Assembly (NCBI GenBank): GCA_002492295.1
Contig: DKYC01000132.1
Coordinates: 6,085 to 70,084 of the forward strand
Direction of reading: 5' to 3'
Source: Lachnospiraceae bacterium UBA7110
Lineage (GTDB): Bacteria; Bacillota; Clostridia; Lachnospirales; Lachnospiraceae
Length of the DNA: 64,000 bases
Below, piece after piece: positions 24,067 to 30,000 of this stretch. The notes under the pieces were generated by a model. It was given only the letters and a program-made list of their open reading frames with translations. It was not told where the DNA came from and did not search any database. Position 1 is the stretch's first letter. The number at the start of each line of letters is the position of its first letter. The position numbers and the translations under genes were made by a program.

Positions 24067-27000
24067 ATGAGGAAAAAAACAAAACAGTACATCCAAAAAT
24101 GCCTGTGCGGGATTTTAAGTGCTGCGATGATATTGACAAGCCTGTCAATACCGGAACTGGCGACTTATGCGGCACAGCCTGACGAGACGGAGGTGTCTAC
24201 GGAAGCACCTGAAGAATCATCCAAAGAATCGTCCGAGGAAGTAGTCAGGGACGAGAAAAAGGATGAAGAAGCTTCAACTCCGGAATCGGAAGAGAAGATG
24301 TCTTCAAGCGTTTCTGGAACTGAAGAAGACGAGGGTGCGTCTTTGGAAAGCAAGGAAAGTGAAACGGAAACAGCTGAAACGGAATCGACGGAGACAGAGA
24401 CAGCTTCGGAAGAGGAAAGTGAAACAGCTGAAAAAGAAGAGAAAGAAAAGACAGCCAAAGAGGCAGATAACCGTGCAAACGAAACGGGAACTTTGCAGAA
24501 TGGCGATTTCAGCAACGGAACAGATTCCTGGACAGTAGACAATATTGCTATTACAACAGACACTAATATGAGTGATAATGGCAATTATTTGTATAAATGG
24601 GGTGACAGTGATTATACAATCACAGTAAGCCAGGAAATTCAGAATGTTGTGGCAGGAAAATACACAGCATCCATAGACGCAGGAGGGGTATATGATGCAA
24701 ATGTGTTTTCTTTGAATGTATACTTAGACGGTAACAGTGTGCCTACAGTATCGAAAGCATTTACAGAAGGTAAAGGATGGGGAAATTGGGATACATTCAC
24801 GACAGATCCTTTTGAAATAACACAAAGTAATAGCAGTATAACAATTGAGGTTTCTGGTAATTTGGCTTCAGGCAAGCAGATACATATAGATAATGCAAAG
24901 TTTGAAGTTGCCACATCTCATACGTTAAGTGACTTAGATACGCTATGTCAAAGTGTAAAGGATTACAAAGAAGCAGATTATAAGGAAGGTTGGAGCGATT
25001 TTAAGACAGCGCTTGATAAAGCACAAGAACTAATAACATTATCATCTAATGATGCTGTTGCGATTGACAGTGCATACACAGCGTTGGAGCAAGCAATCGA
25101 TAAACTGCAACTTGCAGATATTACGGCAGCATTTTATTATCATGGAGAAACAGGCCAGACACTTGGTGCAGTCTCATGGAAATACACAGGAGTTAATTTG
25201 GAGGGAGACTGGTCATTGGATAAATGGCTGCTCGATGATAAAGACAATGAGGATACTTCAGATGACTATAGCGCTAATGTTTGTCTGGTAAAGGAATCCG
25301 AGGAACATCCGGGATGGTATCGTGTTGATTTAAAATTTGCCCCATCAATAACAAATGATGGATTTGATATATACAAATTAGACAGTATAGACAGTGAAGC
25401 AACGAAAATACTTTCTTTTGACAAACAATGGAATAATACGGATACATATGATAAATTGGTTTCTGGTGATGCAGATACCTATGCTGTTGAAAAAAGCGGA
25501 AAAATTATTTTTGAAGGTGAAAATGACATAACAACTGCAATGCGCAACGTCACACTGCACGTATATGACAGCGAAGGAATACCTACGATTGGCTACAAAG
25601 AAGCGCTTAAATCACTTGACGAAAATGGTGCAATAATAAATCTTGAGGAAACAAGCAACACCAACAACATTTATTATTATGATATGGAACCCGATTCCGA
25701 AAAGGATGGTTGGTATTCACTGACATTTTCTGTACCGGCAGCCGCTGAAACTACAGGTGAGGTCTGTGGGTTATATTCTAAGAAAGCTGGAACTCACGAA
25801 GATGTTAAAATTTTCACAAACACAGAAATTGCGCCTGTTTTCAAGGGCGATACATACTACAAAAACGGGCAATTCTACGCATCTAAAGCACTTGCGGACG
25901 GAATTACGCTTGGTACGTTAAAGGCGTTAATTACAGAAGCAGAAACCAAAGTACAGGACGACTACACGGAAGATTCATGGAATCCATTTAGCGAAGCCCT
26001 GAAAACAGCAAATGACTTGAAAACATTGCTAAATGACAAAGATGACACCTACATGGACGAAGAAGGCACGACAGCAATTACAGATGCATACAATGCCTTG
26101 AATAAAGCAATGGAAGGTCTGCAGGAAAAGGAAGTAACCGTTACAATAGACTTCTATTATTATGCAGGCGATACAAACGGCAAAGGAGTCGGTATTTACC
26201 AGTGGAGCCAGAGTGACAATATTTCTTCAACAGCACCTGTAGCAGACTGGAAAGCATGGGGAACAGATTCTGTTTATCAGATGACCGCTTCCGATTATTC
26301 TGGCTGGTATACAATACCGCTTACCTTTAAAGGCAGTGTGGAAGACAATGCAAACTTCCAGGTATTTGTTGAAGGCGCTTCGGAGTCAGCATATAAATGC
26401 GGCAGCGAGGCAAGCCCTGATAACGGAGGCAATAGCGCCATTTATGCAAAGTTCTTCAACAAAGACAACGACAAAAAACCTTATGCCGTAAAACCCTTTG
26501 GCAAGACCAATATGCATTACGAAGGGGAAGACGACGTAAACGCTGTAACGCGCAATGTTACATTATATGTATATGACAGTACAGGAATCCCTGCGCTTGG
26601 TTCAAAAAACAGCCTGAAAACAATTAACACAACGAACGGAACAGTGGAAACCCTCACACAATCAGGTAGTACAGAAGTCAAATATTACTATCAGATGAAA
26701 GCAGTTGACGCGCATGAAAACTGGTACGAACTGACATTTTCCGCAGCAGCAGAGGATGAGATTTGCGGATTGTACACATATACAGACCCGTATTATGCGC
26801 TGAATATGACGTTCCTGAACAAAGCTCCGGCAGCAGGAGATGATACATCGGTTGATTTCAGACCTGTTTTTGGAGGAAATGTATACTATAGAAACGGCAA
26901 ATTTTATGAATCATTCGAACTTGCCGAAGGAATTACCTTAAAAATGTTAAAGGATTTCCTGGCATCAGAGGATGTTACTGCGATTGTAAATAAAGGCGAA

Positions 27001-30000
27001 GATACTTATACGGAAGCGTCATGGAAGGCATTTAATGATGCAAAGACACAGGCAGAAGCTGTGGTAACCGAATGCGAAGGCAGCGACGATACAAAAGCGG
27101 ACGATTACACAAGCGATAAAATTACGGACGCATATCAGACGCTTTCTTCTGCCATTAAAGCGATGGAAGAGAAGTCCTCCGTTGTCATGTTCTATTACTA
27201 CAACGACAGCATCGACAGCGATGACCAGCTCGGACTGGTATTTTGGGGTGGTGACCAGTCTTATTCCACGGCAGAAAAGTACACGGACTGGAAAGTATGG
27301 AATGATGGCGATACCTACGTCATGACAGCAGTAGGAGGATATCAGGGATGGTACAGTATCCCTATGGTTTTCGTGCCGACACCGGAGGCAAATTATCCGG
27401 GATTTGAAATCCACAAAAAGAGCGATCCTGCTACTGCAGTAGAGAAATATTCCGTTGACGGAACGAACTACCCTGTTTTAAATAACGGAGAAACTGCTTA
27501 CGCAGTGAAAGATGGAAAATATTATTTAGGCAAAGACATGGCATCTGCAGTGATGCGCAACGTTACATTCTATGTATACAGCGAAACCGGCATACCGGCG
27601 ATTGTAGTGTCAGGTACCCTTACTTCGATAGACGAAGCCAATGGGGAAAAAATTAACCTTACATCAAACTTCACAGACGAGTGGAATAACAACTATTATG
27701 ATATGACGCCGGATACCATGAACAATTGGTATTACCTGACATTCAGCATGCCTGATACGGAGAATGTTTCAGATAAAATAGGTGATTTATATGAAAAGGC
27801 TGGCGGCGGATATACATGGCTGAAAGGCTTGCTGAATGGTCCTGCAGGCGACGAATACAGCATCGACCTGACGCCGGTTCTGAAGGGATATGTTTATTAT
27901 AAAGACGGCGTGCTTTCCGATTCGAGAGTGATTACTTTGGAAGACCTGAAAAATCTGGTTGATACGGCAGTAAAACTCAGGGACGAGGATCTGAAGGCGG
28001 AAGAAACCGGTGAGAATAAGTATTACCATGACAGTGAAAGCGACGGCGGAAAGTGGAACCAGTTCCTTGAAAAAATTACTGCGGCAGAAGCGGTGATGGC
28101 AAAAGAAGGCCCGACAAACGAGGAAATACAGACAGCATATGATGAACTGACAATTGCAATGGGAGAGCTTGTTCCAAGTACATGGGAAAGAGCGGAGATT
28201 AAGGTGGAGCCTGTAGCGGTAGCGGACGATTTTATCATGGGTGCAGACCTTTCCTCATACGTTTCCCTCAAGGAAAGCGGAACGGTATTCAAGGATGAGA
28301 ACGGAAAAGCATTGTCGGATGAAGGGTTCTTTAAACTGCTGCACGATGGCGGCACAAACTGGGTTCGTATCCGTATATGGCCCGATCCGTATGACGGCAA
28401 CGGAAACGGATACGGCGGCGGCAATAACGACCTGGAGAAAGCAAAGACAATCGGACGGCTTGCAACAAAGGCAGGCATGCGGGTTCTGATTGATTTCCAT
28501 TATTCGGATTTCTGGGCAGACCCTTCAAAACAGGATGCTCCGAAGGCTTGGGAAAAGTATACGATTGAGGAGAAGGAGAAAGCTGTTTATGAGTATACAT
28601 TATCAAATTTGAACGCATTGAAGAGTGCGGGCGTTGACGTTGGCATGGTTCAGGTCGGAAACGAGACGAACAATGCAGTCTGCGGTGAAAAGGGCTGGGA
28701 CAATATGTCGAGAATCTTCAACGCCGGAAGCAAGGCGGTAAGGGAATTTGACAGGAATTGTCTTGTGGCACTGCACTTTGCAGATCCTTCTTCGAGCGCG
28801 TTTGCCGGATATGCGCAGCATGCGGACGAGAAGAACGTGGACTATGATGTATTCGCGGCTTCTTACTATCCGTTCTGGCATGGAACAACGCAAAACCTGA
28901 CTTCTGTATTGACGAATATAGCCAATACATATGGTAAAAAAGTTATGGTCGCAGAGACTTCCTGGGTAACGACATGGGAAGACGGCGACGGACATGAGAA
29001 TACCGCACCGAGATCAACCCAGACATTGCAGTATCCGGTTTCTGTCCAGGGACAGGCGGATGAGATGCGCGATGTCGTGAATGCAGTGAATTTGGTCAAT
29101 AGCGCGGCAGCCGGAAATCCGGCTATCGGTGTATTCTACTGGGAGCCTGCATGGGTTTCTCCGTACTATGCATATAACGGAAAGACACTTGACCAAGGTT
29201 TGTACAATAAAAATAAGGAAGCATGGGAAAAATACGGTTCCGGCTGGGCGTCAAGCTATTCCGCGGAATATGACCCGATTGATGCGGGAAGATGGTACGG
29301 TGGAAGCGCGGTTGACAATCAGGCATGGTTTGACTTTAACGGCCGGGCGCTTGCAACGGCGAAGGCTTACAAATATATCCGCACGGGAGCTGTTGCGACA
29401 GACCGCAAGAACGAGATTGCCAGCGTAGAACAGAAAATTGAGTGGACAGGAACAAAGGGAATTAATGTAGGTTCTCCTGTTGTCTTGCCGGATGGCAGCG
29501 ATGTGGTAGTTACCTTCAATGACGGTACAAAGAGTACCGATGAAGGCGGTAATCCGCATTTGAAATCAATCAGGGTAAAGTGGGATGAAAAACAGGTTCC
29601 CCTGATTAATACGGATAAGGCAGCAGTATACACGATTGACGGTATTGCGACATGTGAGTACTACATGATTGACGGCGCTCCGGAGACAAAGACAGAAACA
29701 TATGATATTACGCTGGAGCTGGAAGTGCTCTCTACCAGCAATATCCTTGTAAACAGAGGATTTGAGGACGGAGAAGCGCCTTGGATTAAGACGCTGCTTG
29801 ACAAACCTGAGGATTATGTATTGGATTCCAGTGTCGGACATTTTGAGGTGCGGGCAGAAGATCCGCATTCCGGAACAAACGGTATGCATTTCTGGTGTCA
29901 GGACGCGATTCATTTTACGGTAGAGCAGACTGTAGCGGAACTTAAGCCGGGAACCTATACGGCAGGCGGATTCGTTCAGGGTAACGGTGCTTCTTCGAAA

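Follow-up and report, generated by a model that had tools for sequence, protein, structure and literature searches.

A triplicated, CBM26-related module in a giant GH53 enzyme of Lachnospiraceae: a candidate carbohydrate-binding family predicted to hold galactan

The giant GH53 gene of the rodent-gut organism Lachnospiraceae bacterium UBA7110, which lies in the 64,000-nucleotide stretch of DNA analysed here as a whole (the window; GenBank assembly GCA_002492295.1, contig DKYC01000132.1, positions 6,085 to 70,084 of the forward strand), encodes a protein with three tandem copies of a module to which Pfam, NCBIfam and PDB sequence searches assign no family. The module family is real, well defined and unannotated, and by its predicted fold it is a putative carbohydrate-binding module (CBM) of the starch-binding fold group, with binding being a prediction from sequence. 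On balance, and with modest confidence, the modules are explained as an unassigned CBM family that gives the secreted GH53 enzyme a multivalent hold on galactan-rich pectin. They probably represent a new family of galactan-binding modules, since they are remote relatives of CBM26 that occur on GH53 enzymes only. The binding of glycan, and specifically of galactan or rhamnogalacturonan I (RG-I), is predicted from this exclusive association with GH53 and from conserved aromatic residues. The gene and the three module copies are placed in the window as follows.

24067-32700, forward strand: giant GH53 gene, a single open reading frame of 2877 amino acids (translation and Pfam domain scan)
25114-25884, forward strand: module M1, amino acids 350-606, with the N-half at 25114-25521 and the C-half at 25522-25884 (self-BLAST and alignment)
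26131-26916, forward strand: module M2, amino acids 689-950, with the N-half at 26131-26529 and the C-half at 26530-26916 (the copy modelled by AlphaFold2)
27172-27927, forward strand: module M3, amino acids 1036-1287, with the N-half at 27172-27534 and the C-half at 27535-27927 (self-BLAST and alignment)

Piecewise self-BLAST reveals a three-fold repeat with a unit of approximately 335-350 amino acids, which spans amino acids 286-1368 (pairwise E 1e-7 to 1e-37); within it, each module is approximately 255 amino acids long, and M1, M2 and M3 show pairwise identities of 34-36 %. A first-pass annotation of the sequence had placed three tandem modules at 25118-25900, 26137-26930 and 27181-27930, and the boundaries determined here fall within a few bases of these positions. 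All of the motifs quoted at that time recur among the 50 columns that are invariant in M1-M3, including FYYY, GWY, RNVT.YVY, GIP, WY.LTFS and PVF.G..YY..G. The suggestion that the modules belong to no assigned family was also borne out, as neither Pfam nor NCBIfam scans, which include many CBM models, gave a match inside the modules (Pfam is empty between amino acids 350 and 1290), and PDB sequence searches with a single module or with profiles returned nothing significant, the top chance matches being Old Yellow Enzyme and Csm6. Literature searches on GH53 enzymes and galactan-binding CBMs turned up no account of the module, nor was a relevant paper found for the PDB code 9FLI. In the CAZy sense of a CBM, the module is a discrete, independently folding and non-catalytic unit inside a carbohydrate-active enzyme, as indicated by confident stand-alone models of the module and of its C-half, by its location in a GH53 protein and by the occurrence of lone N-halves elsewhere.

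The alignment used for modelling comprised 46 modules, namely the three window copies and 43 copies from related loci. The AlphaFold2 model of M2 (pLDDT 95.4, pTM 0.89) contains two all-beta domains linked by a short helix, and the C-half modelled alone reaches a pLDDT of 94.4. The two halves are homologous according to hhalign (probability 93 %, E 2.8e-7; local run 86 %), in agreement with the earlier proposal of two related beta-sandwich halves. Judged from the model, each module is best explained as a rigid pair of beta-sandwich domains that would have arisen by an old internal duplication. When the whole module was compared with the PDB using Foldseek, the sole match below E 1e-3 was 6b15_A (E 3.4e-4, probability 1.0, 220 columns, 13 % identity), the two tandem CBM26 domains (CBMbc) of Eubacterium rectale Amy13K, which was followed by CBM20, the N-terminal domains of pullulanase and branching enzyme, and the HGSNAT luminal domain. 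The N-half profile likewise found its best PDB sequence match in 6b15 (E 0.031), where the match extends into both CBM26 domains. The comparison that the first-pass annotation had proposed as a check, consisting of AlphaFold and Foldseek, therefore upheld the CBM25/26-like fold, with a confident two-sandwich model and a tandem CBM26 as its top match.

The same model can be read in another way. The modules may be purely structural and form, together with the FIVAR bundles, a rigid stalk that holds the catalytic domain off the cell surface and binds no glycan. Such a role, considered unlikely overall, is favoured by the rigidity of the module as one two-domain unit (pTM 0.89) and by the C-half, in which neither a CBM-like platform nor a significant structural match is seen.

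The distance to known CBM families was estimated with CBM26 and CBM41 profiles built from Lachnospiraceae genomes (29 domains for CBM26), the CBM26 comparison entries being PDB 6b15/6b3p (Amy13K CBMbc), 2c3h (BhCBM26) and Pfam PF16738. The N-half profile aligns to CBM26 with E 3.7e-4 (hhalign probability 37 %) and to CBM41 with E 0.031 (1.6 %), and the calibration pair, CBM26 against CBM41, gives E 3.3e-3 (10 %); the C-half returned nothing with either profile. On the basis of the value of 3.7e-4 against 3.3e-3 in the control, together with the failure of the Pfam CBM26 model to match the modules, the N-half is, by profile comparison, nearest to CBM26 and closer to it than CBM41 is, but a relative and not a member, about as far away as accepted families of starch CBMs are from one another. 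A scan of the whole genome from which the window comes gave no match to PF16738.

The likeness to CBM26 comprises the beta-sandwich fold, the best matches of both the whole module in structure and the N-half profile in PDB sequence, a shared strand pattern (a Y-rich first strand, followed by an aromatic residue, W, M, G(W/x)Y and F/I), the tandem arrangement as in Amy13K CBMbc, and, in a weak alignment, aromatics at the platform positions. By contrast, the N-half is longer (approximately 130 amino acids, compared with approximately 95 in CBM26) and the identity is 13 % only; it has Trp in place of the stacking Tyr, lacks the WPG motif and is rigidly fused to a diverged second half, and its carriers are exclusively GH53 galactanases, never GH13 amylases. 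The starch-type modules CBM41/PUD and CBM20/CBM48 belong to the same general fold group, with CBM20, pullulanase and branching-enzyme domains among the Foldseek matches, but all matches lie below the family thresholds. Membership of CBM41/PUD (PF03714) was rejected, as only 3 of the 46 modules match, the best with E 0.022 (12.8 bits for the first module of the alignment, below the cut-off of 25 bits), and the hhalign probability is 1.6 %.

CBM61, the CBM family classically tied to GH53, was considered separately, since it is present in the same protein, shares the enzyme partner and, if the modules bind galactan, would share the presumed ligand as well. Membership of this family was also rejected (hhalign probability of 0.3 % when the module profile is compared with the CBM61 of this protein). 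The TmCBM61 structure 2xom is absent from the module profile search of the PDB at E<=10 and from the 50 best Foldseek matches listed, and within this protein it is matched by amino acids 1888-2049 only. The two beta-sandwiches differ in type and no relationship between them is detectable.

The relatives of the modules point to a further explanation. All of the nearest structural and profile relatives (6b15 CBM26, CBM20, pullulanase and branching-enzyme domains) are starch-binding, and the modules may have kept CBM26-type binding of alpha-glucan, in which case enzyme or cell would be tethered to plant particles that bear starch and have galactan-rich walls. CBM26 domains bind their ligand via a Y-x-Y motif and a Trp (Y53, Y55 and W63 in RbCBM26), with W63 of RbCBM26 corresponding to W32 of LaCBM26, the mutation of which abolishes binding (bioRxiv 10.1101/2022.11.20.514607). 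In the hhalign alignment of 37 % probability, module residue W25 falls on the second Tyr of Y-x-Y and W43 on the Trp of WPG, so that the aromatics align with the maltooligosaccharide platform of CBM26, in favour of retained starch binding. The first Tyr of Y-x-Y is, on the other hand, not conserved, position 23 being Y in only 40 of the 89 N-half domains that were taken from 50 %-identity representatives, and the Pfam CBM26 model misses the modules.

In the same set of domains, a W or Y occupies position 25 in 84 cases and position 43 in 83, W59 is invariant (89/89), and the 18 most distant N-half domains also keep aromatics at these positions; the C-half has no equivalent Trp residues. W25 and W43 (module numbering; W713 and W731 of the protein in M2) may form the candidate site of the N-half. 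This qualifies one point of the first-pass annotation, which had taken surface Trp/Tyr motifs of this type as marks of CBMs and likened the GWY pattern to CBM25/26 folds; the invariant GWY belongs to a core strand and recurs in CBM26 (as GWY/GLY in 'G.Y.Y'), it is not obviously a surface binding motif, and W25 and W43 are better candidates. The persistence of aromatics at these two positions in approximately 94 % of the diverged N-halves, among them single N-halves of distant GH53 proteins, exceeds what a spacer would need and argues against a merely structural function.

The distribution of the module was examined by an exhaustive HMMER profile search over 1.84 billion representative proteins, which yielded matches in 48 of them. 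All 31 matches longer than 1100 amino acids have a GH53 domain downstream of the modules and none is a GH13 enzyme, while the remaining 17 are short, apparently fragments that break off ahead of the catalytic domain. The complete confinement of near-complete carriers to GH53 (31/31), never to GH13 or another amylolytic enzyme, speaks against retained starch binding, which is regarded as very unlikely. A spacer exclusive to one enzyme family would not be expected either. At the genome level, 20 loci were found, nearly all of them in Lachnospiraceae and mainly in rodent-gut metagenome-assembled genomes (MAGs), in addition to the isolate COE1, and all 17 untruncated loci are GH53 orthologues of 2400-3000 amino acids. 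Among 400 Lachnospiraceae genera, each sampled with one genome, 4 (approximately 1 %) have the module, and a search for paralogues across the genome of the window detected it in this gene only. Two MAGs labelled 'uncultured Bacteroides sp.' (loci L016 and L018) also bear a module-carrying GH53 of the Lachnospiraceae type, with a GH53 domain 69-75 % identical to that of the window; mis-binning is the probable explanation and horizontal transfer the less likely one.

Orthologues carry between 1 and 4 copies of the module, and distant GH53 proteins bear N-halves alone, often as N-N tandems. One representative protein of 3264 amino acids has four complete modules, and others have one or two plus lone N-halves; the occurrence of one, two or four modules among relatives indicates that module number is evolutionarily plastic. 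In a maximum-likelihood tree, M1, M2 and M3 of the window each cluster with the module at the same position in other species (support 96-100), which indicates that the triplication is old and that each copy has been retained. The ratio of dN/dS between orthologous modules is 0.06-0.24, compared with 0.05-0.08 for the GH53 domain, and the modules are therefore under purifying selection that is looser than that on the catalytic core. Variable copy number, as spacers would show, and faster evolution than in the catalytic domain are both in keeping with a stalk; the long C-terminal repeat array on the other side of the catalytic domain would, however, be the more obvious stalk. In the closest orthologue (L019; GH53 domain 92 % identical), modules 2 and 3 cluster with those of the window, and module 1 (L019 4663-5436) stands apart from the window's M1 on a long branch (1.1), which suggests that it may have been replaced or may have diverged rapidly.

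Under the preferred explanation, binding by an unassigned CBM family, the N-half would be a CBM26-like domain with a Trp-based platform (W25, W43), and the C-half, having lost its platform, would most likely be a structural partner. The modules would hold beta-1,4-galactan or the type I arabinogalactan side chains of pectin. The helix of beta-1,4-galactan resembles that of amylose, and because of this helical shape the curved aromatic platform of the starch type could be retargeted to galactan. Set apart by stiff FIVAR helical bundles and working beside CBM61, the three modules may confer avidity on plant cell-wall particles and thereby keep the catalytic domain on its substrate. A more specific proposal, offered tentatively and with less confidence, is that the N-half founds a new CBM family in which a CBM26 platform was re-tuned to the amylose-like helix of beta-1,4-galactan (Tyr to Trp, with WPG lost) and then locked to a degenerate copy of itself.

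Several observations weigh against galactan binding by a new CBM family. Foldseek found no significant PDB match for the C-half alone (best E 0.068; CBM41 and CBM26 entries at E 0.25-0.65, TM <0.45); the likeness to CBM26 therefore sits mainly in the N-half, and the CBM nature of the C-half is argued from its homology to the N-half. Accordingly, the earlier description of the whole unit as a binding module would fit the N-half, which resembles a binding domain, but not the C-half, which has neither a Trp platform nor a significant structural counterpart. The sequence link to CBM26 is weak, as not one of the 46 modules is detected by PF16738 even at E<=10 and the residue mapping comes from an alignment of 37 % probability, while a weaker HMMER alignment to 6b15 keeps W25 but puts W40, not W43, on the platform Trp. 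In addition, the exclusivity for GH53 could partly result from a single narrow orthologue lineage and not from repeated recruitment, and the giant GH53 gene lies outside any galactan utilisation locus. Finally, CBM61 already serves galactan, so the additional modules could be intended for another polymer or act as a stalk.

The CBMs of one enzyme often target neighbouring polymers, and the modules may accordingly bind a different ligand, such as the RG-I backbone, arabinan, xyloglucan, cellulose, a host mucin galactoside or a protein partner. The presence of CBM61 for galactan and the origin of most carriers in rodent-gut genomes would fit such a function, but nothing specific indicates any of these ligands and the strict linkage to GH53 favours the enzyme's own substrate, which makes this explanation rather improbable. 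With regard to CBM61, the family recognises the helical shape of galactan, according to the title of Cid et al. 2010 (cited in PMC5320581).

The remaining features of the giant protein are as follows.

24472-24921, forward strand: N-terminal beta-sandwich-like domain, amino acids 136-285, possibly a divergent CBM61-like unit
24922-25113, forward strand: FIVAR-like spacer 1, amino acids 286-349 (PF07554, E 2.5e-5)
25885-26130, forward strand: FIVAR-like spacer 2 (PF07554, E 4.5e-4)
26917-27171, forward strand: FIVAR-like spacer 3 (PF07554, E 1.4e-5)
27928-28233, forward strand: FIVAR-like spacer 4 and linker (PF07554, E 4.3e-4)
28234-29358, forward strand: GH53 catalytic domain, amino acids 1390-1764 (PF07745, 383.6 bits, model positions 1-336 of 340)
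29359-29730, forward strand: Big_4 Ig-like domain (PF07532, E 5.7e-5), which aligns to the part of the GH53 structure 9fli that follows the catalytic domain
29728-30213, forward strand: CBM61, amino acids 1888-2049 (phmmer against the PDB: 2xom/2xon, TmCBM61, E 9.1e-15; 9fli, E 8.6e-26)
30217-30369, forward strand: InlB B-repeat-like domain, Flg_new_2 (PF18998, E 4e-6)
30688-32697, forward strand: C-terminal repeat array, amino acids 2208-2877, with repeats of approximately 85-90 amino acids (self-BLAST)

The N-terminus, as read from the sequence, resembles a signal peptide (MRKKTKQ...ATYAAQ) and is followed by an acidic linker rich in Glu, Ser and Thr that extends to approximately amino acid 135. 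The subsequent domain (amino acids 136-285) has no match in Pfam or among PDB sequences; in pairwise comparison it resembles the CBM61 domain of the same protein only faintly (E 0.023), and it may be a highly divergent unit of the CBM61 type. Counted with the CBM61 at amino acids 1888-2049 and the three modules, it renders plausible the earlier estimate of at least five binding units, their binding being predicted. One FIVAR-like unit precedes M1 and one follows each module, all upstream of GH53, so that the claim of a FIVAR-like bundle after each module stands with one further bundle added. Every segment matches PF07554 when scanned singly (E 1.4e-5 to 4.5e-4, 21-26 bits, each on its own below the cut-off), and the whole protein scores 32.5 bits over four stretches, against a cut-off of 29.2. 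The full-length PF07745 match identifies the catalytic domain as a GH53 endo-beta-1,4-galactanase. Its translation contains GNE and AETSW, which we take to be the motifs that hold the two catalytic Glu residues of clan GH-A. The C-terminal 670 amino acids consist of approximately 7-8 repeats with the pattern Y(T)G..(V/I).P...V ... DY.(V/L)(S/T)Y.NN ... A.V.I.GKGNY(T/S)G....F.I.; nothing in Pfam matches the array significantly, and neither LPXTG nor SLH nor a cell-wall-binding repeat was seen in it.

The neighbours of the giant gene are, upstream, genes for an FGGY sugar kinase and for a hybrid histidine kinase with a GAF domain and, downstream, ispE and a GntR regulator gene. The hybrid histidine kinase gene (20886-23597; GAF, HisKA, HATPase and receiver domains) lies on the same strand as the GH53 gene and stops approximately 470 bp before it, and its product could be a regulator of that gene. 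On another contig (C10, L026 9389-13097), a second, small GH53 of 399 amino acids is encoded directly upstream of galT, the gene for Gal-1-P uridylyltransferase, and of an AraC-family regulator gene, which indicates that a galactan/galactose catabolic route is encoded, at least in part, in this genome. The small GH53 probably belongs to such a route, fed by the giant secreted enzyme, and labour may be divided between depolymerisation by the large secreted enzyme and the catabolism downstream of it.

Among dietary fibres, the galactan side chains of pectin hold a major place, and the enzymes of gut Firmicutes are poorly characterised. New CBM families turn up regularly, and the scope of the present one is limited by its rarity (48 representatives and approximately 1 % of Lachnospiraceae genera). 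If galactan binding is true, the modules would constitute a second galactan-binding family, unrelated to CBM61 and built on the scaffold of starch CBMs, which would improve the annotation of carbohydrate-active enzymes and yield a new probe with which galactan could be located in plant cell walls. They would also offer a clean natural switch of specificity between two helical glycans, alpha-glucan and beta-galactan, on one scaffold, that took place independently of CBM61.

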